DNA from: Candidatus Sumerlaeales bacterium
GTDB lineage: Bacteria > Sumerlaeota > Sumerlaeia > Sumerlaeales > Sumerlaeaceae
Length of the DNA stretch: 64,000 nucleotides
Assembly: GCA_038243585.1 (NCBI GenBank)
Contig: JBBSQY010000007.1
Coordinates: 5,069 to 69,068, forward strand
Reading direction: 5' to 3'
The notes under the pieces are model-generated. The model saw nothing but the letters and a program-made list of their open reading frames with translations, was not told where the DNA came from and did no database searches. Position numbers and translations under genes: made by a program. Below, piece after piece: positions 6,322 through 31,848 of this stretch (within the stretch, counting starts at the first letter, position 1; each line of letters opens with the position of its first letter).

Positions 6322-6469
6322 GATTGACGACCACGCGTCACAGTCGCGTCGGTACCCTGATGCAGCCGCGCACCTGAGACTGGCTCCTTTGACATACTGA
6401 ATTAACAAAAAGACGCTACGACTTTGAATGGTTGACAGAAGTAACAGGCGAACCGCATTTTTTTAAGCT

Positions 6470-7492: not shown

Positions 7493-7497
7493 AGGTC

Positions 7498-11593: not shown

Positions 11594-14419
11594 TTAAACC
11601 CTAAACACTTTCATCACTTCATCGCCTAGGTGGTTGATCACTTTCACCGCGATTCGTCCGGTTTCCGGTTTGGCGAACGGGCGGGAGGTGTCGCTGTTTA
11701 GTGTATCCCAGGCTTCTTGGTCGATCTCGGCTTTGAGCGTTGTCTTTAGCGACTTATATGGGTCGTTTGCGCCGAGGAAGTACGCCTGTCTTACGAAGAA
11801 ACTTTCTTCGTTATAGTCCGTATCGATGAACCAGCAGGCGATTCCGTCGGCGCCGTCGCTTCTGACTTCTCCTGATGCCGGATGAAAGACGTCTACGCCG
11901 TTCACCCTTACCTGGATTCGGTCGTTGTCGGCCGGCAGGATTTCCACGTCAGGCTCGCCGAAGATCACGAAAAGGTTGCCCTTGCCGGTATTTTTCAGGT
12001 CCGTTGCCATGTGGAGATCAGCGTTCATTCTGGCCTTCAGCACCGGCAGACGGCCCAGCTTACTGAACTCCGTGCTGTGGGCATCATAGGCGAAGGCGCA
12101 ACTGATCAACACATCAAAATCTGCGTCGCCAGCTTCGCGCGCGGCCTCTACCAGGTCCGGGCGTGATACAGTCCCGAACTCCGGACCAAGGAAAACGGCC
12201 GCGCGCTTCTCCTTACCGTTGCCATCGCCGCCGCTTTCCATGTACCGGCCTTCAGCGCAGATACGGTCTCCTGCCCATGGTTTTAGCGATGTGAAGTTGA
12301 TCTTATCTTTCTTGTCCGATTGTTGCACGCCGGATGTCCGCAGGTTCTCAAGGATCATGGAAACAAAGGTTTGTCCTTCACCATAGGCCCCAGAGCCATC
12401 GGCAATCCGGTCGATCAATTCGTCATTTTCATCCAGACCAAGCACCCGGTGGGGAGACAGGCTTTCCACGGTGAAAGGTCCGGCCACGCGGACTTTCTTT
12501 TTATCTTCATAGGGTTTGTCATAAAGATATTCGGTATCGGCGCGGGCGGCGATAGACGCATCGATCTCTTTCTGGCCGGCGATGCGGTTTTCCCACCACT
12601 CCTTGTGAAGAGTGTGGGCTTCCATAGGCCAGGATGGTTCCGCCTCCCGGGGTATCTCCCATTCTTCCCAGGACTTGCCCAAGGTCTTGTTTAGCTTCTC
12701 CCTGATGGGTTCAAGGATTTCCTGGAACTGGTCCCAGATCACATCGATCTCTGTATTATTAGCGATGGATTTCAGGGTGATGTGAGGCACACGCTCATAA
12801 ACGAACCCATGGCGTATATCGCCTCGAGTAGATGCCGATGAAGGTTCGGCGCGGGTGATCTCAGCTTCCTTCTGTTGACCTTCGGAGGAGTCGGCGAGCA
12901 AATAATATGGATATCGGGCCCCCATAATGCGCGCCCGCGCAAGGGCCATAGCTACGCGGGAAGTGTCTACGGTGATCCAACGCCTTCCTAATTGTTCAGC
13001 GACATATGCGGTCGTACCTGATCCCATTGTTGGATCAAGGACGAGATCGCCTGGATCGGTCGCCATCAAAATACAACGCTCAATAACTCGAGGGGATGTC
13101 TCTACTACATAATTCAAACCGACTCCAATTTGCATCGAATCCCACCGTTCTGTTAGGGGAATTACTGCGAAATCGCCAACAAACCTTTTATATCTTACTG
13201 TTTTTCCAGTACTTACTATCCGATCGCTTTTGATAAGTCGACGTAATCCCAATTCTGTAGTTTTCCAGTGAGAACCCCTACGTGTCTCGTAAATCTTTCC
13301 TTGAAAAAGAAGCTCGCGACTCGCGTTTGGTGATTCACCGTCCGAAAACAAAGGAGCTGCTTGCAATCGTTTCAGAAAATCGACAGAAGATGTAGCTTTA
13401 CTTACAGCCTCTTTCTTAAACGGGATAGACTCATGCTGATCATATCGCTCGAGAGACTTCTCTCCCTCCTTTCGCTCTAGGTAAAGCTGCCGAAACTTAG
13501 TACTGGCTCTGTTTTTCCCATACCAGATTATGTAGTCTTGGGTAGACTCGATGAAGTTGCCTTCAATTCCGCCAGTCTTCTGAAATCCGATAAGGACAAT
13601 AAAGTTGTCTGATCCGAAAATCTCATCCATCATTACTCGGACACGGTGGACATTTTCGTCTCCAATCTGGACAAATACTGATCCAGAGTCGGTCAGTAGA
13701 TCTCTCGCCAGTATTAGTCGATCACGCAAATAAGTCAGGTATGAGTGGATACCATCTCGCCATGTATCGCGAAATGCTCTCACCTGCTCCGGCTCACGGG
13801 TGATGTTGTCGGCCTTGCCGTCCTTCACGTCGCGGTTGGTGGTGCTCCACTGGAAGTTGCTATTAAACTTAATGCCGTAAGGGGGATCAAAGTAGATACA
13901 CTGTACCTTGCCTCTCAGCCCCTCGCGCTCGGCCAGAGATGCCATCACCTGGAGGCTATCGCCCAGGATCATGCGGTTTGCCCAATGGGCATCGTGCTGG
14001 TAGAACTCCGTCTTGGCGTCGGAACTCGGCAATCCGTTAAAGTCCGCAAACAGATCAACCTGTTCATCTTCCTCTGGTGGCGCGGCTTTTTTGCTCTGGC
14101 GCACCAGGTCATCAATGAGAACCTTGGGATGAATCTTCTCCTGGATATAAAGCGGCGGCGCCTGCACTACCAGGTCTGACCAATCCTGCTGATCCTTTCC
14201 GCGCCACATCAACTGCGGATCCAAATCCACATTGCGCTGTTCCTTCTCCTGCTCCAGCCCTTCACTACCCCGCCCGTAAATCACCTTAACAGGGTCATGC
14301 TGCTCCTTGGCGACAATAGACTGATACTCAGCCGTAGGAATGTTTTTACGAGTCGCATCCTCATGGACGAGCGTCTCGATAGATTTTGCTGCGGTGGAGG
14401 TGATTCTCTTTGGGGGCAT
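11594..14419 (-). CDS. mod: Type III R-M methyltransferase subunit (beta-class amino-MTase)
   Basis: Catalytic FDPPYG precedes SAM-binding LDPTMGSGTT, with a variable TRD in between. Co-oriented with res. Confidence 0.9.
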   Translation of the reverse strand: MPPKRITSTAAKSIETLVHEDATRKNIPTAEYQSIVAKEQHDPVKVIYGRGSEGLEQEKEQRNVDLDPQLMWRGKDQQDWSDLVVQAPPLYIQEKIHPKVLIDDLVRQSKKAAPPEEDEQVDLFADFNGLPSSDAKTEFYQHDAHWANRMILGDSLQVMASLAEREGLRGKVQCIYFDPPYGIKFNSNFQWSTTNRDVKDGKADNITREPEQVRAFRDTWRDGIHSYLTYLRDRLILARDLLTDSGSVFVQIGDENVHRVRVMMDEIFGSDNFIVLIGFQKTGGIEGNFIESTQDYIIWYGKNRASTKFRQLYLERKEGEKSLERYDQHESIPFKKEAVSKATSSVDFLKRLQAAPLFSDGESPNASRELLFQGKIYETRRGSHWKTTELGLRRLIKSDRIVSTGKTVRYKRFVGDFAVIPLTERWDSMQIGVGLNYVVETSPRVIERCILMATDPGDLVLDPTMGSGTTAYVAEQLGRRWITVDTSRVAMALARARIMGARYPYYLLADSSEGQQKEAEITRAEPSSASTRGDIRHGFVYERVPHITLKSIANNTEIDVIWDQFQEILEPIREKLNKTLGKSWEEWEIPREAEPSWPMEAHTLHKEWWENRIAGQKEIDASIAARADTEYLYDKPYEDKKKVRVAGPFTVESLSPHRVLGLDENDELIDRIADGSGAYGEGQTFVSMILENLRTSGVQQSDKKDKINFTSLKPWAGDRICAEGRYMESGGDGNGKEKRAAVFLGPEFGTVSRPDLVEAAREAGDADFDVLISCAFAYDAHSTEFSKLGRLPVLKARMNADLHMATDLKNTGKGNLFVIFGEPDVEILPADNDRIQVRVNGVDVFHPASGEVRSDGADGIACWFIDTDYNEESFFVRQAYFLGANDPYKSLKTTLKAEIDQEAWDTLNSDTSRPFAKPETGRIAVKVINHLGDEVMKVFRV

Positions 14420-14421
14420 TA

Positions 14422-15267
14422 TTAGTTCTCGTCTTCGGCAGCACTTGGTTTTTTTGTATCGATGTTGGGTAGCGATTTTTCCAGGACTGAGACAACTCCG
14501 TCCACATGCTCATGGAGATCATCATTGATACTCTGTCCCAAAGAGTCAAGGAGGACTTCAACACCTTCACGGCGTGCGACCTTGGCAGCCGGAACGAAGT
14601 CGCTGTCGCCGGTTACCAGAATTATTGTATCAATTTGTTTCTTTAGCGTCAGTGTAGAAATATCAACTCCGATGCGCATATCCACACCCTTTTGACGGAG
14701 CCCCAGGCGAACATCATTGGGAGTTACCGCCTGCCAGGAAGTAACTATCTTTTGGAGCTTGGCAGCTTGCTCCTGCGTTAAAGGAACGGGCTCTTCGCCT
14801 GTTTCCGCTTTTACGATAGCGCCTTCCAGCACATGGACCCAGTCTCGCAGGCGAAGTAGCCGCTTTGTTGTGTCTGTATTAGCTATATGCCAACCGTCTT
14901 CCCGGACCACCTTGCCAAGTCGCAAAGCAAACTTTCGCCTTGTTCGAAGTTCGCGGAATAGCTCGTGGCGAAAGATTGCTTCAGGCGTTCTGTCAAAATG
15001 GATCTGACGGTTCTCCAGTGGGTGGTGTGCCGTTCCGTCGTATGGTAACGCATCATAGTAGAAAAGTCGATACACGTGATCTAGCCAACGTTCATCACTG
15101 GGATGGGCAGACTCCTCCACCAGCTTAAGCACGTGCTCTTTACAAAGAGTCACGGCCCAGTCTGCCACCTCTTTTGGGGTCGTGCATCTATGATGACCGA
15201 CGATCTTCGATACCCGCCGAAGAAAGAATGCGCCATCAATAAGAATGGCAATTCGCCTAATCCGCAT
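14422..15267 (-). CDS. NYN (PIN-like, LabA/DUF88) ribonuclease-domain protein
   Basis: ILIDGAFF, FYYDA, QKGVDMRIGVD, TGDSDFVP, HVDG acidic tetrad. RBS-like AGGAG upstream of the ATG. Confidence 0.9.
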   Translation of the reverse strand: MRIRRIAILIDGAFFLRRVSKIVGHHRCTTPKEVADWAVTLCKEHVLKLVEESAHPSDERWLDHVYRLFYYDALPYDGTAHHPLENRQIHFDRTPEAIFRHELFRELRTRRKFALRLGKVVREDGWHIANTDTTKRLLRLRDWVHVLEGAIVKAETGEEPVPLTQEQAAKLQKIVTSWQAVTPNDVRLGLRQKGVDMRIGVDISTLTLKKQIDTIILVTGDSDFVPAAKVARREGVEVLLDSLGQSINDDLHEHVDGVVSVLEKSLPNIDTKKPSAAEDEN

Positions 15268-15290
15268 AGCTACACTCCTGATCAGGCAAT

Positions 15291-15351
15291 AAAAAAGCCC
15301 CAGGATTTCGGGAACGCTCCGGATTGGTGAGCGCCTCTACTCTCAAGGGGC
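15291..15351 (-). ncRNA. Candidate structured leader/small RNA upstream of the NYN gene
   Basis: Minus strand GCCCCUUGAGAGUAGAGGCGCUCACCAAUCCGGAGCGUUCCCGAAAUCCUGGGGCUUUUUU. Outer stem GCCCC/GGGGC, inner stem GCGCUC/GAGCGU, AGUA/GAA internal loop, U6 tail. Confidence 0.55.
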
Positions 15352-15579
15352 GGATACATAAATTTGGTGTTAATTTAAACAAACCACATACAGTAAAATT
15401 TCGGTTCGCAATAACTTTTCCGACACCTATAGAAAGATTATGCGAGGAGCCACCTGAGAGGCGTTCATAGGTTTCGGGCGAAAAGGATGGTCTCAAAGTT
15501 GGTGTGTTCAAAGTTGTATTTTCCCTGTTAATAAAATTTTAGTGACTACCAGCTCGGGAGGCGTTTGACGCAAGAGAGG

Positions 15580-18500
15580 CTAAACAACAACCTCTTCAAC
15601 CTGAGCATCTATCATTTCATTAAAAGCGGCTTCCACCTTATCACCGAACTCGGCTTCCATGGCAAAGACCTCTTTAAACTCGGCAAAGGCCCACCGTCCA
15701 TATTGCTTTAAATGATTAACGCCGGGTATCCAGTAGGCGTCCATAGTCTGTTTCTTAAACTTGGCATCTTCGCCGCGGTACCCTTTGATCTCCACTACGA
15801 GATGCAGCGGATCCTCTTGGCCATCGTCCACAAGAACAATAAAGTCTGGCCGGTACATGCGGTTTTCAGAACCGAACCGGTATGGCACTTCAAAGCCCAT
15901 GCTATGGTTTTTCACATAAGCTTTGACCCGGGGATGAGTTTCCGCGACCCGGCAAAATTCAGCCTCCCAGTCGCTATCGAGGATGACCCAATTAACATGA
16001 CAGCGATCGGGCGAGGTTTTCCACCGTTCCGTCCTGGAAGTATTGAAGAGAACTGAACTTGTGGAACCTGACGGGCGGTATGGATCAACCACTGCCATTA
16101 TAGGTGAAACGTCTGCCATGGCCAGGGTAATGCCGGTTGTTATCTTTTCGCAGGCCATGTCGGCCAGTTCCTGGTACATAAGCTGGGCAGGGTACGTGCC
16201 GCCAGTGCAGACAAGGCAGGTATCCAGCCACTGCTTGGTGACGCGCCGCATATCATTAATGAGATGAACCTTGGGATCATCCCCCGGCTTACGCCACTTG
16301 GTATATACCAGCCGCTTGGCCAGATGAAAGATCAGAGTGGAAGTACGCATGTCTTCCAAATGCTTTAACGTAAGATCGATCCCCTCACCGATAATACCAT
16401 AGACTTGAACCTGAGACGGACCGACGAGGCGCGGATTCAGTTCGAGAACTGAGTCTTCATCATATTTCGCGATGAGCCGCTCTGATGGCAATTCAACGCG
16501 GTAACCCTGCACCCGAGGGAAAACAATTTCCAGGGCATCGCGATCCGGCCGTATGGCTTTGACGGTAATTGTCTCGCGGGGTGGCTGGGGTTTAGCGACT
16601 ACAGGTTTGGCGTTGAAGTCGAACGGAATGCCAAGGACGTCCGCATACTCGACATTAAAAAGTCCATCTTCGTTGAGATCATAAGACTGCCGGCGCAATG
16701 CGCGGCCAATGACCTGTTCGCACAAAAGCTGAGTTCCAAATGCGCGCACGCCAAGCACGTGGGTAACGGTATTGGCATCCCAACCCTCCGTCAACATAGA
16801 AACCGACACAACACACCGGATGGCTTCACCCAGCCGACCTTTTTTGCCTACGGTGTTCATGACCTCTCGAAGCAGCTCATTGTCCGGGATTGAATCGGCA
16901 TCTATAGATGTGCCGGTTCTGGCGATGATTTCGCGGCGGAATCGTTCTATTTCGTGGGCGGCTATCTTGCGGAAGTTGTCGTCAAGCGCCTCCCCGGACT
17001 CAAGCTGGGCACTATCGATAAGAAGGGTGCGTGGCTGCGGGTGTGGGTTATCATACTCATCGAAGTTGCGGAAAAGTTCCAAGCTACCGCGGACATGACG
17101 GCCAAGACCATCTTCGCCCAATTGCTCAAACCCGGATATGTACTCATATACAAGTTTTGAAATGGCGGTGTTTTGACAGACGACAATGAAGCAGGGCGGA
17201 ACATCAATGCCGCTCTCCTGCCAGAGTTCAAAGGTGGACTTGTAGTGACCGTACAGCGCCTCCAATGCGCTTTTCAGCAGTGTTGGCAGACTCAAAGGAT
17301 CTAGTGATCCCGATTTTGCGCGGCTACTTTTCGGCAGTTTTACTTTACCTTTGCTAAGGTGTTTCCACAAGTCACGGAACATCGGCATCTCGGTTCCCGG
17401 CAGGTTATCTGCAACGGGGACGCGGGGCAACTTAACAATGCCGCTCTCGATGGCATCCATAAGGGAAAAGTCGCTCATGGTCCAGGGAAAGAGAGTTCCC
17501 TCGGCATACCCAGAGCCACTGAGGAAAAAAGGTGTGGCTGATAGATCGACAACGGCATTTAGGCCGAGCTTCCGCTTTACGATTTCAATGCCAGAGATCC
17601 ACAGCCGGGCCGCCTCAGTGTTCTCTTTGGCTTCTGAATCACTCTTTTCGACGGCCACTTCATCGGAGTCACCCGGCTTTTCCCTGTAACAATGATGGGC
17701 CTCGTCGTTGAGTACCATAATGTTCCTGGTGCCCATAAGTGACGGCATCACCCGCTGGATCATCTTCCCTTCGGTTTCCAAGGTCTGAATGTCGGTTCCT
17801 GTGCGTCCCTTCAGCAGCGCGCGATTGCCGGCAGCAATGTCCATGGTCTCGCGGAGCTTAAAGGAATGATAGTTCGTAATGACGATGTTGGCTTTGCCGA
17901 GATCCGGGAGCATGTCTGTCGGAACGAGTTCTCGGGACTTGTAGTAGCTGTCAGGATCAGCTGGCTGCAGTACGCGAAGCCGGTCTTTAATGGTAATGCC
18001 GGGTGTAACAATGAGGAAACCACGGGTGAACTTGTTGCTGCCGGGCCGGCGCACTGCATTAACCGTCTGCCATGCAATGATCATGGCCATTACCGTAGTT
18101 TTGCCGGCACCAGTAGCCAGCTTAAGGGCGATACGCATCAGCTCCGGGTTGGCGTCGCGGTTAGCGTTGGTGATATGCTCCAGGAACTCCTTGTCCACTT
18201 TGCTTTGCGGCGCGACCTCCGTAAGCCATATCAGGGTTTCAGCCGCCTCTACCTGGCAAAAGAATGGTCGTACGCCGTTGAATTCATACTGACGCCAGTG
18301 TTGAAGGAGACGCGCTGTTTCCGGAGTTACCTGCCAGTCGTTTGGGTTTGGGAGCTTGCGCCAGAAATCGACTTTTTGCCGCAATGCATTAATGACAGGA
18401 TTAGGGTCATACTTCTGTTTTTCCGTTGAGACGCCATCACTATCCAGATTAAGCTCAACCTGATCCTTACTGCCAGTCCGCTTCCTGGATTTGGGGATTG

Positions 18501-18636
18501 GTGTGATGAACTCAGCAATCCGCCTGCGCTCGACAATCTGCTGGGTAGGCTGGCCTTCGGTGTCGAGTTCCCAATGACGGGCTGGGTACTCGTAAGGCGA
18601 GTTCAAGATCGGCTGTTCGAAAAAGCGGTTTTCCAT
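15580..18636 (-). CDS. res: Type III restriction endonuclease/helicase subunit
   Basis: KLATGAGKT, NDEAHH, LSATP, QVIGRALR, C-terminal PDFIV...VEIKG nuclease motif. Start placed at MENRFF (18636) rather than 18672. Confidence 0.9.
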   Translation of the reverse strand: MENRFFEQPILNSPYEYPARHWELDTEGQPTQQIVERRRIAEFITPIPKSRKRTGSKDQVELNLDSDGVSTEKQKYDPNPVINALRQKVDFWRKLPNPNDWQVTPETARLLQHWRQYEFNGVRPFFCQVEAAETLIWLTEVAPQSKVDKEFLEHITNANRDANPELMRIALKLATGAGKTTVMAMIIAWQTVNAVRRPGSNKFTRGFLIVTPGITIKDRLRVLQPADPDSYYKSRELVPTDMLPDLGKANIVITNYHSFKLRETMDIAAGNRALLKGRTGTDIQTLETEGKMIQRVMPSLMGTRNIMVLNDEAHHCYREKPGDSDEVAVEKSDSEAKENTEAARLWISGIEIVKRKLGLNAVVDLSATPFFLSGSGYAEGTLFPWTMSDFSLMDAIESGIVKLPRVPVADNLPGTEMPMFRDLWKHLSKGKVKLPKSSRAKSGSLDPLSLPTLLKSALEALYGHYKSTFELWQESGIDVPPCFIVVCQNTAISKLVYEYISGFEQLGEDGLGRHVRGSLELFRNFDEYDNPHPQPRTLLIDSAQLESGEALDDNFRKIAAHEIERFRREIIARTGTSIDADSIPDNELLREVMNTVGKKGRLGEAIRCVVSVSMLTEGWDANTVTHVLGVRAFGTQLLCEQVIGRALRRQSYDLNEDGLFNVEYADVLGIPFDFNAKPVVAKPQPPRETITVKAIRPDRDALEIVFPRVQGYRVELPSERLIAKYDEDSVLELNPRLVGPSQVQVYGIIGEGIDLTLKHLEDMRTSTLIFHLAKRLVYTKWRKPGDDPKVHLINDMRRVTKQWLDTCLVCTGGTYPAQLMYQELADMACEKITTGITLAMADVSPIMAVVDPYRPSGSTSSVLFNTSRTERWKTSPDRCHVNWVILDSDWEAEFCRVAETHPRVKAYVKNHSMGFEVPYRFGSENRMYRPDFIVLVDDGQEDPLHLVVEIKGYRGEDAKFKKQTMDAYWIPGVNHLKQYGRWAFAEFKEVFAMEAEFGDKVEAAFNEMIDAQVEEVVV

Positions 18637-19122
18637 AATTCCATCCCTGCTGCCATTGCGGCTGCGCATCATGCACTAAGTCGTGGCCAGCTGGCACCGT
18701 ATGTCAACTGGTTGCAACCATAAAAGGTACCGTTATTATACCTGCACCCATATCGCTTCCAAGGGCGTTCCACTGGGTGAAAGGCGTTCTCGGCGTCATC
18801 TGGACAGAATGCTGTTTCTGAGATGGAATTGACGAGCGTATATAGTGGGTTTTCTCACAAGTACAAAACCGACCGAGCCCCTGGCAGCCTGCAGACAGCA
18901 TCTGCTTAATTCCCGCAGCAATTATTGCCCTACAGACATCGCAGCCGCACCCAGCGTTACCATGAACTTCAACTGCAGATTAGCTAAACGTAGTATGACT
19001 GAGCCCTACTCTCCGTAGAAGCCCTGCTCACAATGCGCTGACGCGGCAGCGGCGCCTGAGATTTGTGTGCAGCCCTACTAAATACTCCCAGACACACCAG
19101 CCACAACAGCGAGGGAGCTACC

Positions 19123-19425
19123 ATGAAAAAGGCAAAGATCGATACATGCGAAGGCATTAGAGTTGCAGGCAAGACACCGGCAAGATTCAATGGTCTGGAG
19201 GCGGTTCGCAAATGGATACCCTGCGAAGAATTTTGCGAGTTATACAGGCTTCCCATCACCCGGCCTCCAAGGAAGACGCTGGCTAAGTATTCTACTTCAA
19301 AAGCCACGGCGGCCAGGAAATGCTGCGAACGACTAGCTGCGAAAGGACTCATTAAGACGCACCGGATCGACGGTCGCCTGTACGTAGCGATGGAGTCAGT
19401 AAGGTCGTTCGGAGAAAAGGCATGA
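19123..19425 (+). CDS. Small basic winged-helix/excisionase-like protein
   Basis: GAGGGAG RBS before ATG 19123. The C-terminus RLAAKGLIKTHRIDGRLYVAMESV resembles Xis-type HTH wings. Confidence 0.5.
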   Translation: MKKAKIDTCEGIRVAGKTPARFNGLEAVRKWIPCEEFCELYRLPITRPPRKTLAKYSTSKATAARKCCERLAAKGLIKTHRIDGRLYVAMESVRSFGEKA

Positions 19426-19491
19426 AGCAGCCGTCTTTAAACCACCCCACCGGGCTTCTTATGGTCACGACTTTAGCTGCTCTGGCTCAGG

Positions 19492-19636
19492 GTTTCAGTG
19501 ACTTTCGGTGGATTACAAACTCACACGCTACGACATCCAGACTATTGGTGCCGTTACTTTTAGCTGAGCCCGAACCGGCCATAACCTTCTGTCCGGACCT
19601 GACGGCAACCATAAAGCCACCGAAAGTCGCTGAAAC
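19492..19636 (+). repeat. 20-bp inverted repeat closing a long multi-stem structure
   Basis: GTTTCAGTGACTTTCGGTGG (19492-19511) vs CCACCGAAAGTCGCTGAAAC (19617-19636): 19/20 Watson-Crick pairs plus one U.G. Inner stem at 19543-19556/19600-19613. Confidence 0.85.
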
Positions 19637-19754
19637 TATGATACCATGGGCTTCTCGGGCCCCTCCACAATAAGTTTATGGCAAATTAACAAGTACACTC
19701 GCTGGTGCGTTAACCTAGTAATAAACCATAAAATATACGGTATAGGAGCAGCAA

Positions 19755-21956
19755 GTGCTCCTTCTGCCGAAAGGAAGATTTAATATGAGAAGAGTTTTAA
19801 GTACAGAGGACATAGCCAAACTAACTGTCGCTGATGCCGCAGCCGCTTGGAAAACCCAAAGCGAAAAACTGGATCATCGTCATTGCTCCTATCCTTACGT
19901 TTTTCAACCGCAGTACAACTCCAGCGTTGAGAAGTTCCTCCCTAGAGCCTTGGACTTCTTAGCAGACAAAGGAAATGTATTTAACGATCATATCGTTCCA
20001 GTGCCGCAAGCTGTTAATGCTGGATACGGCAGAATGCTAGTCGCAATATTTGATCACGATACTGAGGACATTGCCAAGGCGGCCAGAGCCGCATTTCTTC
20101 ATGAGCGCCATGGTTATGATTTACACCGGGCATATACGCTAAGCAGCGCGGAGCTTGGCCTTGATAGAAACACTGCCAAATCGGCTAATAATGTTGCAGA
20201 AGCGGTTCGCCGCCTGATCCGCTTTTTCAGGACGTGGCTGACAACTTGCTCCACTGTTCTGATCGATAGCCAGTGGCCAGCAACTCCAGCAGACTTAAAG
20301 CGTTCCAAAGCGTCGGTGCTCGTCGGCAGAATACGCAGAGAAATGATTGGGCGCGGCGTACTTGATCCTCGCCACGCTACCCCGAAGATGATTGCTGAGG
20401 CGCTGCGATCCTACACAGATAAATCACATTCTACAGGAGATGTTCGTCACTGGAATTCAAGTCTCAGGGATCTTGTGGCAGCGGTAAAGGATAATCAATT
20501 TGCAGGAATTACAGAAGAGCATCTCTCGGAACTAGCTGAAGTGCGTACGAATCCTCGCAACCCTGCTATGACAATCAGTGAAGAAGAACTCACCCAATTG
20601 TGGCCGGAGTACTTCCCCTCCCTTCCAGGAGACAAAACTCATCTGGATCCAGAGCAGGGAATGCCAGGCTATTTTAACAAACTACTAGCTGCCGAAGCAC
20701 CCTCAAACCCTGCTGGTCATAAGTGTCCACGCGAACGGCAGCTCCACCGGAACGCGCACACAAATAGATTCAGATCAATCCGCCGTTACCTGTACCGTAT
20801 CATACACAAAATCGGATGCGAGAACGGCGGCACAATTACGCTACGAGACGCTTTCGAACCAAGACGAATTCGCGAGTGGCTTGAAGCCGAAATAAAGGCT
20901 AAGGGCAAAGTTCATCACAGCCATAAAGACGGCTACATGCACTCGCTGATGGTTTCAAAGCATTATTTTGGCCACGATGTGGCAGACTTGGAGTCATGGA
21001 GTAGAGAAAACGTGCAATTTCCCGGTGACTGGGAATCTACCCGCGGCGAGCAGGCACTTAGAAACGGAAATCCCAAGACATTAGTAGAGCAGGCAGAGGC
21101 GATGGGGAGGTATGCCACTAGCTCATTGGAACTTTCTTCTAAAAAAGCCGGCTTACGAAGTACCCACTCTGGCGCCGGCCACTATTTGCTTCGAAAATCT
21201 GGCGAGATCGATTGCTGGCTCCGCCTTTTGACAGGCCTGCGGCCAGGAGCTCTGGATGAACTGGAGGTAGCCAACTCACCAGATCGTACTGGCTGCGCAC
21301 CTGCGATTTGGTTCGAATCCAAGGGCTATTATATTCTCTTTGTCCCTCTGCGCTGGATGAAACAGCATCTGGTTAATATATGGGGGAAAAACAATTCCAA
21401 GCGCTTGGATCTTGATTCAGCTACAGGAGAAGTTAAGGGCTTTGAATTTGAGATCCACAGGCCGGAAGCCGTTTCTGCCCTCTCAGATTATCTGCGTGAA
21501 GGTTGGCCTTATGCCAAGGCTGTTCAAGAAAAGCGTACGCGAAAGCTTTATCTCAACAGCAAAGGCGAACCGTTTCAAGACAATGGATTTGCTAAAGCAT
21601 TTACTTCATTGCGAGCCGAAGTTCGACATTTCATACATAAGTCTGAGGGCCGTGAAATTACAGATCACACCCGTTATCAGCATCGCCACATAATGGCCAC
21701 TTTTGTTGAAACTCATCTACCTGGGCACGGTCTAAAAACCACGTATTTGACTCATAGTTCAGATTTTGGATCGAACGCACTTTATGGGAAAACCAATATG
21801 ACACTGTTGCGCGAGGTGATAGACGAACTGCTTGATGGCAAGCCAACAAGGCTGACTCAACAGGAACTCCGGGAAAAAGAGCGGGACGAACAGTTAGTCA
21901 ATTTGCAAAAACAACTTGAAGAGATGATGACCAAATTAAACGATAAAGCCTCGTAA
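19755..21956 (+). CDS. Large, divergent tyrosine recombinase-like protein (733 aa)
   Basis: The C-terminal third has LLTGLRPGAL (R), WMKQH (K), YQHRHIMAT (HxxR-like box), LTHS (H) and ALYG (Y) in canonical order. Long helical N-terminus and coiled-coil tail. Start is GTG 19755 or ATG 19785. Confidence 0.65.
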   Translation: MLLLPKGRFNMRRVLSTEDIAKLTVADAAAAWKTQSEKLDHRHCSYPYVFQPQYNSSVEKFLPRALDFLADKGNVFNDHIVPVPQAVNAGYGRMLVAIFDHDTEDIAKAARAAFLHERHGYDLHRAYTLSSAELGLDRNTAKSANNVAEAVRRLIRFFRTWLTTCSTVLIDSQWPATPADLKRSKASVLVGRIRREMIGRGVLDPRHATPKMIAEALRSYTDKSHSTGDVRHWNSSLRDLVAAVKDNQFAGITEEHLSELAEVRTNPRNPAMTISEEELTQLWPEYFPSLPGDKTHLDPEQGMPGYFNKLLAAEAPSNPAGHKCPRERQLHRNAHTNRFRSIRRYLYRIIHKIGCENGGTITLRDAFEPRRIREWLEAEIKAKGKVHHSHKDGYMHSLMVSKHYFGHDVADLESWSRENVQFPGDWESTRGEQALRNGNPKTLVEQAEAMGRYATSSLELSSKKAGLRSTHSGAGHYLLRKSGEIDCWLRLLTGLRPGALDELEVANSPDRTGCAPAIWFESKGYYILFVPLRWMKQHLVNIWGKNNSKRLDLDSATGEVKGFEFEIHRPEAVSALSDYLREGWPYAKAVQEKRTRKLYLNSKGEPFQDNGFAKAFTSLRAEVRHFIHKSEGREITDHTRYQHRHIMATFVETHLPGHGLKTTYLTHSSDFGSNALYGKTNMTLLREVIDELLDGKPTRLTQQELREKERDEQLVNLQKQLEEMMTKLNDKAS

Positions 21957-21989
21957 TCAGGGAGCATACCAAAGGATTACAGCAGCCAC

Positions 21990-22033
21990 AAAAAATGCCC
22001 CCTGTCTCGCCATTAAGCGCAGGGGGCTTTTTT
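21990..22033. terminator. Bidirectional intrinsic terminator
   Basis: A-tract, GCCCCCTG...CAGGGGGC stem, T6, between convergent genes. Confidence 0.8.
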
Positions 22034-22502
22034 GAGGCCGGCCGCGTGTTAAGTATTGGTCAGGGTGCTAGATCCTTGGAGGAGGCACCTGCTGCACAAT
22101 ATTGTTGTTAGGACCAAGATACCACCGCTATCAGGCACCATCTTTAAGGAGCTAGCTAGCTCAAGCGTATCAGCGCCCAAACAAAAGATTCGGATGTTAA
22201 GAACAGCGGCTAATCCAAGCAAGCTGGAAAGTAAGCACGCCGGAATAAGCTGTTTGAAAGAGCGGCTACAATCTGCCCCTGGTAGCAAATAGCATTCAGG
22301 TTCATCGATAACTCATCACAACACTCGCCACGCAGGGGCGAAAGAGTACACCTAATTTTAATATCAGGTTCAGCATATGCCAACCCGGCTCAATTCCGTT
22401 TTCCTGGAAAATGTTAAACAACATAACCCGGCCTATAGCGTACCTTCGGTTCCGAAAAATATCCTTCGAAACGAACATAACGCAATCCGTTCAGTTCCAT
22501 TG

Positions 22503-23783
22503 TTAAGCGGCAGTTTCAGGTTCAGTCAGTAATAGACTCAATCCTTCAATTTCTTGAAGTGACTGTCCGGCAATCCCTTGCAAATCGCCATATAGCCCAG
22601 CGGTGCAATCAATTACGGTTCGAATCTGTTGCTCACGCTTCGCCCACATGCGGGTCGTGGTGCGTCGCTCCTTTTCCAAATCATCACTCATTTCGGAAAA
22701 TTTTTCCACTATTGCCTGTACTTTTTGCCGGAACTGCGGTCCTGTAAGATACCCGTAAATCCGCTCCATTTTTCCGTGTTGTCCTTCCATAGCAGCACGG
22801 ACCAGGTTAGTTTCAAGTATGGAGAACCGCAATGCAATAGCGACCGGAACCGCACATTGAAACGTGGTAATCCAAACTCCATCGATAAGATCAAAATTTC
22901 CAACATGCTTCGGCACAGCCTGTGAAGCGACGATAGCTATATCTGCTTTTGCGTTTCGCTGGTCATGACGTAATTTCGCCAACCAGGCGTCGCTCCAATT
23001 TTTCGTTCGCTTGCATTCCCACAGAATAGTGCCAGCAGTTTTTCCGGTTTGTCCCATCACCTGGTGAATTATATCACCGCCAGCCTCTCCTTTCGCTACT
23101 GGTAGGAATCTGTCCATCGGAAATGCTGCGCGCAAAGATGCTTCCAGGTCCAGTTCTTGTACTTCTCCCTGCAACTGCTGAGAGCCCTGCTCTGCCTTTC
23201 GTTTCAGTTCTTCAATCTTACGTTGCATACTAGTAATTAGCACTTCTTTCTCAAGCACTTTCAACCCCAGCGAATCCTCCGCTTCTCTGCGGCCCTGTTC
23301 CCGCACAGCATTAAGTGATTCCTGGATGCGCTTTTCAATAGTTAGCGCCATTTCCCGTTTTGCATCATCCAGCTCTCTCGATTTCCGCATCAGTTCCACC
23401 TGGGCCTGTTGTGCTTCCACCAGCTTTACGTCTTGCTGCTCAAGAATCTTGTTTAGCTCATTTAATTTTTGTTCCTTAGCTTCAAAGTTTGCAGCTACTG
23501 CCAGACGTGCTTTCTTTGACTCTTCCGCTGCAATTTTTCCTCTTTCAGCAGCCATTCGCAGGGTGACTTGCTCGTCAACGGACGCCTTCGCTTTCACCAA
23601 TTCGAGTTTCTGTTTTTGCAGCTCTGCCTGCTGCTTGTTCACTTCGATATCTTTGGCGGCGATTGCGGTTTCGTACTGCTTTCGGGTTTGCTCGAGCAGG
23701 GGCGCGGCAAGTGATTCCGTCAACCGGATATCGGCCTTACAAGATGGGCAAAAAACAACTAGTTCGTTCATTAGACTCTCCAA
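22503..23783 (-). CDS. DUF2130-family coiled-coil protein with C-terminal PD-(D/E)xK-like domain
   Basis: N-terminal CPSC, long coiled coil, GSQQLQGEVQELDLE, GDI...ILWECKRTKNWSDAWLAKL. Confidence 0.8.
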   Translation of the reverse strand: MESLMNELVVFCPSCKADIRLTESLAAPLLEQTRKQYETAIAAKDIEVNKQQAELQKQKLELVKAKASVDEQVTLRMAAERGKIAAEESKKARLAVAANFEAKEQKLNELNKILEQQDVKLVEAQQAQVELMRKSRELDDAKREMALTIEKRIQESLNAVREQGRREAEDSLGLKVLEKEVLITSMQRKIEELKRKAEQGSQQLQGEVQELDLEASLRAAFPMDRFLPVAKGEAGGDIIHQVMGQTGKTAGTILWECKRTKNWSDAWLAKLRHDQRNAKADIAIVASQAVPKHVGNFDLIDGVWITTFQCAVPVAIALRFSILETNLVRAAMEGQHGKMERIYGYLTGPQFRQKVQAIVEKFSEMSDDLEKERRTTTRMWAKREQQIRTVIDCTAGLYGDLQGIAGQSLQEIEGLSLLLTEPETAA

Positions 23784-23921: not shown

Positions 23922-24620
23922 TCAATATCCGACCCTGCGGACAACCTCTCCACTAAGGCTTAGGACTTTGGCTTTCGTCAGGTAAAACCAATCTGATTCG
24001 GAAAGAACTGCATCGATGGATTCAACAACCTCGGAAAAACGACTCGGGATTAGATGAATATCCTCTTCCAGATCTGCCAGGAGAAGTTCCGCAGCGGCAT
24101 GCAAAACAGCAAGACGTGCGTCATTGTAGTTCTGAGGTAGGCGTGACTGTAGTGCCGTAAGTACAAAGTCAGAAGCAATCACTCGAATCTGGTGCGGTTG
24201 CAGTAGAAGTGAGCGATTTTTTGCCTCGAATACTTCATCTGATTCAACATCCCGGAGCCAGATGCTTTCGCAACCTAGCCCAAGATTCTCTAGTTTTCCG
24301 TGGTCGGCCACTATCGCGAGCATCCTTGTCTCGATGCCGTTTTCCACACTTACCGGAGACCGCCAGACCTTAAGTGCAACCTCATCCACTAGTGCCACAA
24401 TCGGCAGCATCGAATAATGGTACTGGCAGTTAATCGTTTTAGCTTTTTCCGGTTTTCGCCTGGACTTTTCCGGTAGCACGCTCATCATCTCTAGCACGTA
24501 AACTCGTTGAGAGCTTGATTCGCTATCGGACAGCAGCTGTTCAAATTGCCATTTCAGATATTTCTTCTCACCTCGCGGAACGTCTTCATTAGGGTTTTGA
24601 TCGTCTCCTTTGCTTATCAT
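23922..24620 (-). CDS. Hypothetical protein (232 aa)
   Basis: Translationally coupled (TAATG) to the upstream ORF. No motif recognised. Confidence 0.65.
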   Translation of the reverse strand: MISKGDDQNPNEDVPRGEKKYLKWQFEQLLSDSESSSQRVYVLEMMSVLPEKSRRKPEKAKTINCQYHYSMLPIVALVDEVALKVWRSPVSVENGIETRMLAIVADHGKLENLGLGCESIWLRDVESDEVFEAKNRSLLLQPHQIRVIASDFVLTALQSRLPQNYNDARLAVLHAAAELLLADLEEDIHLIPSRFSEVVESIDAVLSESDWFYLTKAKVLSLSGEVVRRVGY

Positions 24621-24865
24621 TATAGGTTCCTCGTCCGCGTGTCGAAATGCGCTGCCACCTTTGCGGCCGGAATCTGTTTTTTAGTCTGCTGGGTTTTCGA
24701 AATACCACATTCTGAAAGATGCTGTAGATCAGCAGGAGGCTCGCCGGCAGATAAGATGTCGCCCAAATAGGTAACACCTGTACTAATGTACAAAGAGCCG
24801 GAATAGCCGTTCGACGAGAAGACAACGCAACGCGCGATAGGCGCTGAGTCACGGCGCCTTATCAT
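24620..24865 (-). CDS. Hypothetical protein (81 aa)
   Basis: ATGA and TAATG overlaps with both neighbours. Confidence 0.55.
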   Translation of the reverse strand: MIRRRDSAPIARCVVFSSNGYSGSLYISTGVTYLGDILSAGEPPADLQHLSECGISKTQQTKKQIPAAKVAAHFDTRTRNL

Positions 24866-25773
24866 TTACCACCGACCGCAGTCAGCAAATCCGCAACGTA
24901 GGGGACCAGCGCGTCCAGACCGTTTGGAGCAACTTCGTTTAAATTGACTTTTCTAATAACGGATCGGATGATTTCCTCATCTGAAGCCGGTATTGGTCTA
25001 GCCACATTAGCGAAATCAAGCTCGTCCCAGATCTTTTCGACCGCGCGGTTTTCAATATAATTATCCACATCTGCCACAGCTTCGCGGTTGGATTCCATTA
25101 AAACCCAGTCAGAAAAAGTGTTGGGGGGAAATGGTTTGATTACGGCGGCAGATACCCATACGCTGCCGTCTTCGCCAGAATAGATTTCCTCAAAGGCTGC
25201 TCTGACTTTGATAACCTTCTCTCGTAAACCGTCCTGCTCCCACCACCCCATCCTGCCTTCGACCAGCAGTTCCATTTTCCCTTGAAAGGGCCCTCGCCGA
25301 AATTTACGACGAGTTACAGAGGCTATTGTGGAGCCGTTAGCTTCCAACACATACCCGTCTACCCGTTCCATTACAGCGATCCAGTACCTGGCGACCTCTG
25401 GCTTTGGTTCATACTGCGCAGCAATGTTCCACGGGCGAGCCTTGCAGCTAACCCATTTAAAGGCACTACGAGGATCCATCACCAAGTGAATGATCTGCGC
25501 CTGCCTGCTTACCAGCGCTACCCAAGTGCTTCTCGGCGGGTTATTGATCCGCTTTTCGCCGTGCGATACGCTGCACCCCAACTTTACGTATACTGCCCGT
25601 TTTTCAACTGGCGTAGACAGCCACTTTTCCAAATTTTCGAGCTGGCGAGCAGTGGTCAGGTGTTCAATCCCGGATATGCCGCGGTACTTCATAGGCAGGT
25701 ATTCCAGACGGCGAGGACCCCGTGGCTTTTTTTCGGTTACTTGTTCTGCTTTGTTCTGCGAAATGATTTCCAT
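24862..25773 (-). CDS. Hypothetical protein (303 aa), first gene of an operon divergent from the XRE gene
   Basis: Strong RBS (AAGGAG) before the ATG. No motif recognised. Confidence 0.7.
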   Translation of the reverse strand: MEIISQNKAEQVTEKKPRGPRRLEYLPMKYRGISGIEHLTTARQLENLEKWLSTPVEKRAVYVKLGCSVSHGEKRINNPPRSTWVALVSRQAQIIHLVMDPRSAFKWVSCKARPWNIAAQYEPKPEVARYWIAVMERVDGYVLEANGSTIASVTRRKFRRGPFQGKMELLVEGRMGWWEQDGLREKVIKVRAAFEEIYSGEDGSVWVSAAVIKPFPPNTFSDWVLMESNREAVADVDNYIENRAVEKIWDELDFANVARPIPASDEEIIRSVIRKVNLNEVAPNGLDALVPYVADLLTAVGGK

Positions 25774-25776
25774 TGT

Positions 25777-25854
25777 GTTCTCCTTAAGGAACGATATGTG
25801 TGTATAAGTTCCTTTAAAGGAACACTATTCACGAGATTGTTCCGCTAAAGGAAC
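25777..25854. promoter_or_regulatory. Three 16-bp palindromic operators (GTTC-N8-GAAC) at 31-bp spacing
   Basis: GTTCTCCTTAAGGAAC 25777, GTTCCTTTAAAGGAAC 25808 (perfect palindrome), GTTCCGCTAAAGGAAC 25839. Confidence 0.8.
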
Positions 25855-25902
25855 AATAACTTAAAAATAAATGCATTACCCATGATTCTCTAATCGAGCG
25901 CC

Positions 25903-26274
25903 GTGTTGTTGGAAATGATAATGAAACCAGAAAAGCGTTCCAATAGCCCAACTTATCTTCTGCCTCAATCTATCGGACAGGTGATTAATACAGCACGCCA
26001 CGCAAAGGGCTGGAGTCTTCGGCAGTTGGCAGAAGCAGCGGGCGTCGGGCCTACTACGATTCACCGCCTGGAAGGCGGTGACGTACGTATACAGTACGAT
26101 ATCATACTTCGGATATGTGATGCGCTTGCTTTGCGCGGCGCCGAAGGTGAACAGCTGGCTGTTGATCCACCACCGGTGCTGGATCAGGAGCTTGAGATTA
26201 TTGAAGCTCTTCGGTCTGGTAGGATTCCCGAGGCACTTGAAAAAGTTGCCGGCTATCTCCGGCAAAAGAAGTAG
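25903..26274 (+). CDS. XRE/Cro-CI family HTH transcriptional regulator
   Basis: IGQVINTARHAKGWSLRQLAEAAGVGPTTIHRLEGG...ILRICDAL. The true start may be ATG 25921. Confidence 0.85.
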   Translation: MLLEMIMKPEKRSNSPTYLLPQSIGQVINTARHAKGWSLRQLAEAAGVGPTTIHRLEGGDVRIQYDIILRICDALALRGAEGEQLAVDPPPVLDQELEIIEALRSGRIPEALEKVAGYLRQKK

Positions 26275-27162
26275 GCTGAATTTAGCAGCTTTCTGTCTGG
26301 CGGCCTGTTTCATCTTTGCTTCCGGTCTCTCAGAATCTCCCAGATGGGCGCGCATAGGAATCTTCCATAATCTGCAGTGGTTAGGTAAAGAGATTGGAAG
26401 AAGTTCTTGGACGATTAAACAATTACGAATATCGCAATTTATTAAAAGCAGCTCTGTGCCAAACTTAGATTGCCCGCCGTCGAACATGACACACAATTTT
26501 TTCTGATGGAACGCACGGAAATGGCGAGAATTTTCACCCACAGCTTATCAGCCCATCGAAGGCCCCCGCTTTTACATTGCTGCGTGTTCTGACATCCGTT
26601 CATGACCTTTATACTTTGTGCAGCAGAACACACAACGCATCATCGGTGCCAGCTACCTTATTACTGTCATCCTCTTCTGATAGAATCGCAAACCACACCA
26701 CTGTCCGCCGTTCGCACAAATCGGTTGTGCTACATTGCCAGTTGGTGAGTCTAGCAAATGTCTCCCGGATTTTGCCGCTCTCCACGCCAACTTTGGGGAT
26801 ATTATCATCTGTCGGTTTGACAGTATAAGATAGCTTCAGCCATCCAGATTTTTTCGGTCTGCTATCGCTTGTGAGTTTTGTTTTTTCATATTGCAGACAA
26901 CAACTCCGCCAGCACTTTCGTTGCCGTTACCTGTCTGTCCCCGAAGCTTTCCTACACGGTTTTGGCCCTGTCAAAACTCGCGCCCCCGATAGAACAGGCG
27001 GCGTCCCATTTCCAAGATTCGATAGATTTAGCGGTGGTTGATGCTGGCGGGATTGGCTTGTCTCACATCTTAAGGCAGATACCGACCACGCACCTTTTTG
27101 TCACCATGACGGGACACGCTGACAATAGGAAACGCTGTGTTCAACCCTTTTATGAGAGAAAG

Positions 27163-27200
27163 AAAAAACGAGCGGCGGACTGAGAGAGGCCGCCGCCCGT
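27163..27200 (-). terminator. Intrinsic terminator of the 469-aa gene
   Basis: Minus strand ACGGGCGGCGG-loop-CCGCCGCUCGU-U5, immediately after the stop at 27205. Confidence 0.75.
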
Positions 27201-27204
27201 ATGG

Positions 27205-28614
27205 TTAGAATACAGTAAACATTCTTACAAGTGGCATTACAAGGGCCGTCTCTTCAGGCGAGCTTTTGATCACCTGTTCAATGGCATGAAGCAATTCATG
27301 GAACTCCGCAAGGTGCTTTTTCCCATAAGACGACAAGCACTTCTTCGGCAGATCAAATAGTTCCTGAACGGTCGCTGGCAACGCGGGTGGCGTCGATTCA
27401 TCGTCTTTTGGCTTTTCCAGTTGTTTACGAGATTTGTTCACAAGTTTACTCGCGACCTCTTCGTTCACCACTTTGCCATTGTCCAACAGAGCACAAATTT
27501 TATCGACAAGTTTATCGGCGTTCTTCTTTTTGTAGCCGCCGATCAGCAACATTGCCTTCTTCTTGCAGTTTTTAACGTCGATCTCTTGTAAAAGTAAGCC
27601 GCGCTTACTTTTCATCCTCTGCTCAAAAACACCGTAGCGGAAGCAGCGACTTAGAAATGCTTTGCCCCACTGGTCCTCGGGAAAGTTCTCCTCCTTCCAG
27701 ACAAAATATAATCTAGGGCTTTTCAAATCCTGTTTCTTTTTAAGAAGCAGTCTTCCAAGCTGGATCTCATAGCAGAACTGATCTGAAAGGTTGCGTCGCC
27801 CACGTTTCAGACAGCTTCTTTCACTCATGACTCCGCCGTTGAATGCCTTCAAAAGAGCCGGTATTTCCATTTCATCGATATCATCAGAACTATTATAATT
27901 GGTAGCATCGGGCGCATCAACATCTCCTTCGTCGGATGAATGCGGTTCTTCTGTTATAATGGTGCTCTCTAAGTCCTGTTGGGAATCGTAAATACCGAAG
28001 ACGATGGCGGTATCCGACACCAAGTCTGATTCTCCGGATGTCGCCGGCAGACTTTCGTCATTGTTATTATCAGGGGTCTTATTATGAATCGCAACATCAT
28101 TGGCGGTTGGTTCGGGGGGGAGAGTAGCTTGCTCAGTTCCAACCGCCTTTAAAGCCACATGCGGATTGTCAGCAAACGCCTTACAGGCCTTCTTGACGAC
28201 TTCCATTAGTTTAAACGGGCCGCTCTTAAAGTCATTTTCCATGTAATTTTCCAACTCGGTGTAAATTGTTAGTGGAAGAATACCGTTAATGACCAGGGCG
28301 CCAGTCATTACCAGATGAATGCCTTTTGACAGGGAGTTGAGCACCAGCCAGTTGATCAAGGCGTAACCAGAGACGATATTTCCTTCAATGGTTGAGGAAA
28401 CAACGCCGTCCTTATTACGGACAACAAAATCTTTTGGGAGCTTCATGCCCACCGGGTTTTCCCAACCGGCCAGAGATTCGTAGAAACCTAAACCATTCAG
28501 GTACGCAATTGAAGTCTCTGCTTCAATTTTCGCCAAGACTACTTCGCGCCCCTGGGTCTGGTTGGCGGCTTTCTTTTTACGAGGCTCCGTTACTTTTCTT
28601 GATGTTTCGTTCAT
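27205..28614 (-). CDS. Hypothetical protein (469 aa) with acidic linker and possible DUF3102-like segment
   Basis: Long ORF with RBS (AAGGAG) and its own terminator. EIQLGRLLLKKK...FVWKEENF loosely resembles DUF3102. Confidence 0.65.
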   Translation of the reverse strand: MNETSRKVTEPRKKKAANQTQGREVVLAKIEAETSIAYLNGLGFYESLAGWENPVGMKLPKDFVVRNKDGVVSSTIEGNIVSGYALINWLVLNSLSKGIHLVMTGALVINGILPLTIYTELENYMENDFKSGPFKLMEVVKKACKAFADNPHVALKAVGTEQATLPPEPTANDVAIHNKTPDNNNDESLPATSGESDLVSDTAIVFGIYDSQQDLESTIITEEPHSSDEGDVDAPDATNYNSSDDIDEMEIPALLKAFNGGVMSERSCLKRGRRNLSDQFCYEIQLGRLLLKKKQDLKSPRLYFVWKEENFPEDQWGKAFLSRCFRYGVFEQRMKSKRGLLLQEIDVKNCKKKAMLLIGGYKKKNADKLVDKICALLDNGKVVNEEVASKLVNKSRKQLEKPKDDESTPPALPATVQELFDLPKKCLSSYGKKHLAEFHELLHAIEQVIKSSPEETALVMPLVRMFTVF

Positions 28615-30330: not shown

Positions 30331-30451
30331 ACTTTGCTGCAGTCGTTGCTGGAACCGTATCATCATTAGTATTTCATTTCTGAATTAACCCTGAATCACT
30401 GCTTGAGGCCACTGTCGGGTTTTGGTGAAATTGATCCGATCGAGGTGTTCC

Positions 30452-31848
<1,397 letters not shown>

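Follow-up and report, generated by a model that had tools for sequence, protein, structure and literature searches.

A five-site motif array upstream of a large and rare tyrosine recombinase gene in Sumerlaeota as a putative recombinase-binding DNA site

Cre and Xer act on a single core of 28-34 base pairs (bp) without arm sites; TnpI of Tn4430 is a small recombinase, whose internal recombination site (IRS) lies directly upstream of tnpI and doubles as its operator; and the IS110 recombinases belong to a family different from that of the tyrosine recombinases. For lambda Int, five arm-type sites have been described in a 240-bp att site (PMC4880445); for TnpI, four motifs with 9 bp in common within an IRS of 116 bp (PMC2847244); and for IS110, a bridge RNA that has a conserved fold with two loops (PMC11208160). 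Here we relate to these systems a locus found in 64,000 nucleotides (nt) of DNA from Candidatus Sumerlaeales bacterium (GenBank assembly GCA_038243585.1, contig JBBSQY010000007.1, positions 5,069 to 69,068 of the forward strand), a stretch that we refer to as the window. In it, the gene of a tyrosine recombinase of 723 amino acids (aa), termed P0001 (19785..21956, + strand), is preceded by a region, 19459-19780, which had been read as densely base-paired and was proposed to be a non-coding RNA, a folded single-stranded DNA (ssDNA) site or an invertible switch (the original prediction). The comparison of related loci leads us to hold, with moderate confidence, that 19459-19731 is instead an array of arm-type or accessory sites in double-stranded DNA, namely, the site of the recombinase's own nucleoprotein complex, rather than a structured RNA.

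The array of the window consists of five copies of one motif. TTATGG is found on the + strand at 19459..19464 (site F1, 326 nt 5' of the ATG) and at 19676..19681 (F2), and CCATAA, that is, the motif on the - strand, at 19579..19584 (R1), 19609..19614 (R2, 30 bp from R1) and 19726..19731 (R3, 59 nt 5' of the ATG). Both words are found elsewhere in the window, with totals of 19 TTATGG and 26 CCATAA; one 6-mer repeated five times within a 336-nt stretch was reached in only 2 of 1000 dinucleotide shuffles. The five copies had been pointed out before, as had the pairings around them, and all the sequence features named at that time are present. First, a 20-bp inverted repeat is formed by 19492..19511 (GTTTCAGTGACTTTCGGTGG; the left arm, which is located within the F1-R1 interval and is specific to the window in this form) and 19617..19636 (the right arm, directly 3' of R2). 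The arms depart from complementarity at only one of 20 positions, T19499 against G19629, which is U.G when read as the + strand and A.C when read as the - strand. Second, 19459-19466 pairs with 19577-19584 (7 of 8 positions matched plus one T:G) and 19484-19490 with 19564-19570 (7 of 7). Third, the hairpin sequences at 19648-19662 and 19675-19732 were found. The nested stem claimed for 19543-19556/19600-19613 also exists, but it is weak, with 11 matches out of 14, one T:G and two true mismatches.

The evidence that favours a protein-binding array comes from five loci, namely, the window and its homologues L003, L005, L006 and L007, which encode proteins that are 28-35% identical. L003 belongs, with L008, to G050; L005, with L009, to G067; L007, with L004, to G009, a Candidatus Sumerlaeaceae metagenome-assembled genome (MAG); and L006 is a metagenome contig of 254 kb. 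The loci of six further full-length family members, P0003-P0005, P0007, P0008 and P0013, each of them a singleton cluster found on a contig of 6-38 kb, stand outside this comparison. In all five loci, the approximately 330 bp located 5' of the ATG hold exactly five copies of one locus-specific motif of 7-11 nt, in the orientation F-R-R-F-R and with nearly fixed centre-to-centre spacings of 108-120, 29-32, 63-68 and 49-52 bp, F1 being placed at -299 to -326. The layout is thus conserved, whereas the motif has diverged: TTTATGGY in the window (at -326, -206, -176, -109 and -59 relative to the ATG); GATTATTnCCG in L003 (-321, -212, -180, -117 and -65); TGTGTGGY in L005 (-312, -204, -175, -107 and -58); TGAGTGGTCG in L006 (-299, -191, -161, -96 and -45); and CCTGAGTGGY in L007 (-309, -200, -169, -104 and -53). 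In each locus, a position-weight scan extending over 450 nt returned these five sites alone, without any weaker copy.

A chance origin of these arrays is excluded. The 8-mers present five times in L006 and L007 were not matched in any of 1000 shuffles, and the 6-mer present five times in L003 was matched in 6 of 1000; L005, with four exact copies and one degenerate copy, is the least striking case, since as much was reached in 70 of 1000 shuffles. The L006 and L007 8-mers occur only in the array within their 12-kb loci, and the L007 9-mer has 25 matches in the 5.1-Mb genome G009, against 17 for a control, the array being the only cluster. Motif similarity tracks protein similarity, with the window and L003 on one side and L005, L006 and L007 on the other. 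Every array is contiguous, on chromosomal contigs of 34-259 kb, and in L005, L006 and L007 site F1 overlaps the end of an upstream coding sequence, to the point that the L007 motif contains the stop codon. One sequence in five copies, oriented both ways and spaced at set distances, reads as the signature of a single DNA-binding module, for separate RNA helices need no shared sequence. The original prediction had entertained, as a second option, that the CCATAA copies are binding half-sites of the recombinase, and this is the part of it that the five-locus comparison supports.

That a large recombinase is encoded downstream was borne out, given that the open reading frame (ORF) at 19785-21956 has a predicted fold that matches tyrosine recombinases. 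The AlphaFold2 model of P0001 (predicted local distance difference test, pLDDT, 80.7) consists of two extra helical subdomains (residues ~1-265), Cre/Xer-like core-binding and catalytic domains (~265-701) and one long helix (689-722). The top Foldseek matches of this model were all tyrosine recombinases, with a probability of 1.00. Using VIA-align, the best alignment was with Cre (Z 12.7, root-mean-square deviation 8.5, 287 residues aligned, model residues 306-701), and XerH (12.0), XerA (12.0), IntI (11.4), Tn1549 Int (11.1) and lambda Int (9.3) also scored high, with 75 chains at a Z of at least 8; the protelomerases TelA and TelK gave 4.7 and 4.0, respectively. As modelled, with both domains of the fold in place, P0001 is a Cre/Xer-like tyrosine recombinase with about 265 extra N-terminal residues. 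When this extension, taken as 268 residues, was folded alone, two helical subdomains were again obtained (pLDDT 75.5), and its best matches, all of them weak, were 3nrw (Z 5.4), 2khq (4.9), XerD (4.9), 3lys (4.7), XerA (4.5) and lambda Int (4.5), that is, mostly N-terminal SAM-like DNA-binding domains of tyrosine recombinases.

The catalytic residues of P0001 were assigned by sequence pattern rather than by residue-level superposition, using what we take to be the tyrosine-recombinase consensus, namely, R, K, H-x-x-R, H/W and Y. Thus assigned, R486 (within TGLRPG), K526 (MKQHK), R634, H657 and Y667 are invariant in all ten sequences of the family alignment, and the position of the first catalytic histidine holds a tyrosine, Y631, in at least 90% of them. 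This nearly invariant Y631 (window positions 21675-21677) precedes the catalytic R634 by three residues, at a position that is histidine in most tyrosine recombinases, and we presume that ResT Y293 and TelA Y363 occupy the equivalent position of a Y-x-x-R motif. A second active-site tyrosine, which is Y293 in ResT and Y363 in TelA, is described in PMC11317167 for these two enzymes only.

At the sequence level, the family stands apart. P0001 matched no Pfam family at E ≤0.01, and the Phage_integrase model PF00589 matched none of ten family members at E ≤1. Its PDB sequence search returned no recombinase at E ≤1, nor at E ≤10, and the NCBIfam and PHROGs searches returned no match; hhalign against the window's two integrases gave a probability of 0.2. 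By these searches, no sequence-level membership in Phage_integrase, or with a solved recombinase, was found. It is also an extremely small family: a HMMER scan of 1.84 billion representative proteins yielded no more than 22 relatives, of which about ten are full length, and the nine relative clusters that were looked up are all singletons, two of which are annotated as 'hypothetical protein' in Sumerlaeia or Sumerlaeaceae MAGs. So far the family has been located only in Sumerlaeota genomes and in soil or sediment metagenomes, and 4 of the 75 Sumerlaeota genomes searched carry the gene. Collections of plasmid, phage and viral contigs contained no homologues of P0001, a search of the genome contigs with P0001 alone gave no related loci, and a word-based protein search found only the window's own protein. 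In their own genome, both P0001 and the array region are single-copy.

On these grounds, we classify the module as a multi-site recombination or regulatory locus of a new, tiny family of large tyrosine recombinases, and we propose the following mechanism. The recombinase would bind the five TTTATGGY copies through its extra N-terminal domains, in arm-type or accessory fashion, and the site at which it recombines would thus be organised by the array into a nucleoprotein complex of higher order. The core-binding and catalytic domains would have as their target a core of weak conservation, within the array or close to it, and the complex probably also governs the recombinase promoter; we infer the identity of the binder, strand exchange in or near the array and autoregulation alike. 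The reaction envisaged would regenerate the site, be it resolution, inversion, or capture with an identical or simple partner, and it is likelier than a completed integration of the lambda type because the array is unsplit in every locus.

Several observations weigh against this proposal. A classical core, with two inverted half-sites 6-8 bp apart, was not found among the motif copies, the closest of which are 29-32 bp apart and direct, nor was a conserved contiguous palindrome with a spacer of ≤8 found in the five loci; core sites are often degenerate, and one could escape motif and palindrome scans. Neither a recombination product, nor a partner array, nor an att-like direct repeat was found. 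Indeed, direct repeats of at least 13-14 nt leading from 18600-19800 or 21900-22600 to the rest of the window are limited to one 13-mer, and no second motif cluster exists in L006, L007 or genome G009. The array, unsplit in five out of five loci, is therefore not a used lambda-type attP. The fold matches of the N-terminal extension (Z ≤5.4) are below a trustworthy level, a small helix-turn-helix (HTH) protein encoded next to the array could be its binder instead, and the loci examined are only five. In addition, on both strands the folding energies of the window and L007 regions are far lower than those of shuffles, so that a folded nucleic-acid form of the array region stays under consideration, and the 20-bp inverted repeat, which is far beyond chance, is not accounted for by a binding array.

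The HTH protein just mentioned leads to the first alternative, which we regard as unlikely, namely, that the region is an operator array only, with its motifs bound by this small protein, or by the recombinase as a pure repressor, and without any strand exchange taking place here. The gene in question, excisionase-like and 100 aa long from the ATG at 19123 (19123..19425, + strand), lies directly 5' of the array, and homologous small genes are found at the same place and on the same strand in four of the five loci (alignment A4), the exception being L003. Two of these four small proteins match TIGR01764 'excise', weakly and below the cut-off, and one matches phrog_66; the window's own protein has no family match. 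Arrays of repeated operators are common, the HTH gene adjoins the array in four of five loci, and the ~50 bp that end at the leader, in which a promoter is to be expected, are enclosed by F2 and R3. However, L003 has a full array without a same-strand HTH gene, and because of this the recombinase is favoured as the binder. Moreover, five sites at fixed spacing across 270 bp exceed the needs of repression, and a scan of the five loci for sigma-70-like promoters gave no consistent place between or around the sites, with the proviso that this consensus may not be that of the phylum.

Next comes the invertible switch of the original prediction, a rather unlikely option that is compatible with a protein-binding array. 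According to it, the recombinase would exchange strands within the 20-bp arms and flip the 105 bp of 19512-19616; since this segment holds R1 and R2, its inversion would alter the geometry of the array. Inverted repeats flanking a segment, as in fim-like switches, are indeed provided by the 20-bp arms, which match at 19 of 20 positions within a 336-nt region, the left one within the F1-R1 interval. In L003, a perfect 15-mer, TTTCGCGACGCCCGG (-273..-259 relative to the ATG), occupies the precise centre of the F1-R1 interval and recurs in inverted form 730 bp further upstream (-1007..-993, L003 reverse strand), a 15-nt match that was seen in none of 147 control intervals. This repeated 15-mer resembles the window arms: the left arm reads TTTCAGYGAC, and TTTC(A)GCGAC is shared at 9 of 9 positions with one gap, a similarity that shuffles reached in 40 of 5000 cases for the right arm and in 339 of 5000 for the left arm. 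It is because of this resemblance between the L003 inverted pair and the arms of the window that the idea of an inversion is kept alive.

Against an inversion, a comparable repeat was not found in L005 or L006, and the 12-mer located at the F1-R1 midpoint of L007 is not significant, as 22 of 145 controls did as well. The repeat partner is placed differently in the window and in L003, and the enclosed segments differ in content. The 20-bp arms are not dyad-symmetric core sites, and 105 bp is short for synapsis by a tyrosine recombinase. Logan contigs of two sequencing runs, at a word depth of ~9.5, contained one orientation and no joints, bearing in mind that contigs drop minor forms. As separate observations, long-range repeats of the R2-F2 and F2-R3 intervals did not exceed noise level, the distal copy of TTTCGCGACGCCCGG in L003 lies just upstream of an AlpA-like gene that adjoins an ordinary integrase, and the low-complexity word GCAGCACACA(C) occurs three times in L007, forward at -256, that is, at the F1-R1 midpoint, and inverted at -2281 and -4057 relative to the ATG.

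A + strand structured RNA, such as a regulatory leader or a recombinase-associated non-coding RNA, or else a folded ssDNA site, in which the motif copies and the 20-bp arms pair, was the favoured reading of the original prediction, and we find it improbable. Its expectation of a folding energy better than that of shuffles held for the + strand of 19459-19780, with -102 kcal/mol against -80.7 +/- 4.8 (z -4.42, 0 of 100 shuffles as good), but the strand specificity did not, since the - strand folds equally well (-111.9 against -91.8 +/- 4.7, z -4.30). From F1 to the ATG, the z values of the five loci (+/- strand) are -3.9/-3.6, -1.6/-3.0, -1.7/-4.0, -1.3/-0.8 and -3.7/-4.2; thus, no + strand preference exists, and in three of the five loci the + strand reaches only -1.3 to -1.7. 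The recombinase gene may share a transcript with the HTH gene located 5' of it, in which case the region could be part of an mRNA; however, as noted above, F1 overlaps in three loci with the last part of an upstream coding sequence.

The bias towards G.U on the + strand, which had been put forward in favour of an RNA, does not survive the comparison either. The imperfections of three pairings are indeed T:G on the + strand, yet the argument rests on single positions, and among the mismatches between forward and reverse motifs of the five loci, G.U pairing could accommodate 16 on the + strand and 42 on the - strand, the remaining 59 being of other kinds, in a count whose forward/reverse pairs are not mutually independent. 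From locus to locus, changes in the forward copies are accompanied by changes in the reverse ones, formally a case of covariation, but all five copies are mutually complementary and hence specify no unique fold. MAFFT followed by RNAalifold on the five regions gave 0 pairs from a poor alignment, and the motif-anchored RNAalifold gave the F1:R3 and R1:F2 motif pairs plus one 4-bp helix and nothing more, keeping in mind that five sequences that can barely be aligned could let a weak structure escape. Nothing corresponds in position to the 20-bp stem in the other four loci, whose strong inverted repeats are all motif copies. In Rfam 15, the window at 18500-20500 had, at E ≤1, only a chance-level snoRNA match (19089-19223, - strand, 21 bits against a gathering score of 100), and L003, L005, L006 and L007 had 0 matches at the gathering score. 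With both strands equal, the stem not conserved, no consensus structure beyond motif pairs and Rfam negative, the proposal of an RNA or ssDNA fold loses its ground, and a conserved fold with a strand preference was not found among the five loci.

Highly improbable, finally, is that the recombinase mRNA includes the ~330-nt stretch, whose motifs would act as RNA, either as a decoy of DNA sites or as a guide or scaffold pairing motif-bearing DNA, a notion based on the guide-like differences in motif from locus to locus and on the folding of the window and L007 far better than chance; if true, it would be the first RNA-assisted tyrosine recombinase, and no RNA-guided one appeared among the papers listed in a literature search that covered titles and the beginnings of abstracts.

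Returning to the recombinase-binding array that we prefer, its surroundings include some further features. Midway between F2 and R3, CGCTGGTGCGT (19700..19710) is identical at the same relative place in L003, the closest homologous locus, and it is the sole word of at least 7 nt at matching positions that is common to both. Downstream of R3, a palindrome scan detected a short hairpin with a 7-bp stem and a 5-nt loop (19744..19762, + strand), in the presumed 5' leader, which has a similar counterpart in L005 only; by eye, it is followed by a purine-rich, Shine-Dalgarno-like stretch (19772-19777, +). An 83-aa ORF (19422-19673, +) runs through the array. ORFs also cross the arrays of L003 and L007, but these share no mutual similarity and read the motifs in different frames, as judged by eye; hence, the 83-aa ORF is probably not a gene and was treated as spurious.

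All five loci are embedded in accessory or mobile DNA. Four of them have restriction or defence genes nearby, some have ordinary integrases of their own, and the neighbours other than the small HTH gene are not conserved across loci. In the window, positions 1-~31200 are nearly devoid of DNA matches to five genomes from the same genus or family, and conserved core-genome matches begin at ~31220. The stretch 1-31200 is a defence-type island, which includes a type III restriction-modification system. Upstream of the HTH gene and the array, it encodes a 1924-aa DEAD/Helicase_C/MZB protein (547-6321), a UvrD-like helicase (7498-9579), RloB (9579-10166), an AAA_21 protein (10166-11506), a 941-aa N6_N4 methylase (11594-14419), an NYN-domain protein (14422-15267) and a type III res subunit with an endonuclease domain (15580-18672). 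Downstream of the recombinase are found a DUF2130 protein (22503-23783), four ORFs of 232, 303, 221 and 469 aa without a Pfam or PHROGs match (23922-28614, - strand) and two tandem Pfam Phage_integrase genes (29143-30330 and 30422-31837, + strand), probably the island's own integrases. The latter adjoin a tRNA-Ala(cgc) gene (31773-31848, - strand), which the second integrase ORF overlaps as listed.

The other loci have neighbours of a similar kind. In L009 (G067:C48), the module is flanked by 1734-8399 and 13054-19646, with a DEAD/ResIII helicase, a BrxC/D-type ATPase, a TerB-domain protein and a HigB-like toxin on one side, and an AAA_25/KaiC-like ATPase and a plasmid-type replication initiator (RPA) on the other; these genes point to a location in what may be an integrated plasmid-like element. 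An ordinary integrase with an arm-binding domain is encoded 1.3 kb away in L008, a Mrr-type nuclease is found near L007, and HsdM_N and DUF6119 are found near L006.

If our interpretation is correct, the locus would define a family of large tyrosine recombinases that is both new and extremely rare, and for which neither Pfam nor NCBIfam has a model, together with its probable DNA site. The same layout with different motifs in five homologues would constitute a natural specificity series for the reading of arm-type sites, and the family might supply orthogonal site-specific recombinases. The accessory-DNA setting, in which some loci also have ordinary integrases, raises the question of what role a second, elaborate recombination module plays. 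For annotation, the lesson is that dense 'base pairing' in an intergenic region beside a recombinase gene can reflect an array of binding sites and not an RNA.

How, then, does this locus compare with the described systems? With the IS110 bridge RNA or seekRNA it shares a structured-looking, non-coding stretch of ~300 nt upstream of a recombinase gene in a mobile element, but the region of the window has no conserved fold and the protein is a tyrosine recombinase. Likeness to the telomere resolvases TelA, ResT and TelK lies in the large size of the protein and in Y631, three residues before the second catalytic arginine; however, the fold is far nearer to Cre/Xer (Z 12-12.7) than to TelA (4.7) or TelK (4.0), and no contiguous palindrome of the tel type exists in the five loci. 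Cre/loxP and Xer/dif provide the best structural matches to residues ~265-701, but P0001 is about twice as long as these enzymes and comes with a five-site array.

The lambda-type integrases offer a further comparison. The lambda attP is like the array of the window in having five copies of one motif, of high affinity in lambda, in both orientations, over ~240-270 bp and adjoining the int gene. Several arm-type motif copies, five in each of the five loci, are accompanied here by a recombinase with an extra, predicted N-terminal DNA-binding part and by an excisionase-like partner gene. Yet neither an inverted core with a 6-8-bp overlap nor a split into attL and attR with terminal direct repeats was seen. 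The locus also differs from the lambda system in that ~265 helical, weakly SAM-like residues take the place of a small arm-binding domain, in the order F-R-R-F-R of the sites, and in that P0001 lacks a sequence match to Pfam Phage_integrase.

The IRS of Tn4430 is the remaining term of comparison. It has an IR1-IR2 core with a 4-bp spacer, whereas no such core was found in the window array, whose nearest copies are direct and 29-32 bp apart; the array spans 270 bp as opposed to 116 bp, P0001 has 723 aa, and a second copy or dimer substrate was not seen. In common, both have copies of a recombinase-binding motif, putative in our case, in direct and inverted orientation within one intact site that adjoins the recombinase gene. 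A resolution site stays intact after recombination, and a site of this kind would explain why the array is unsplit.

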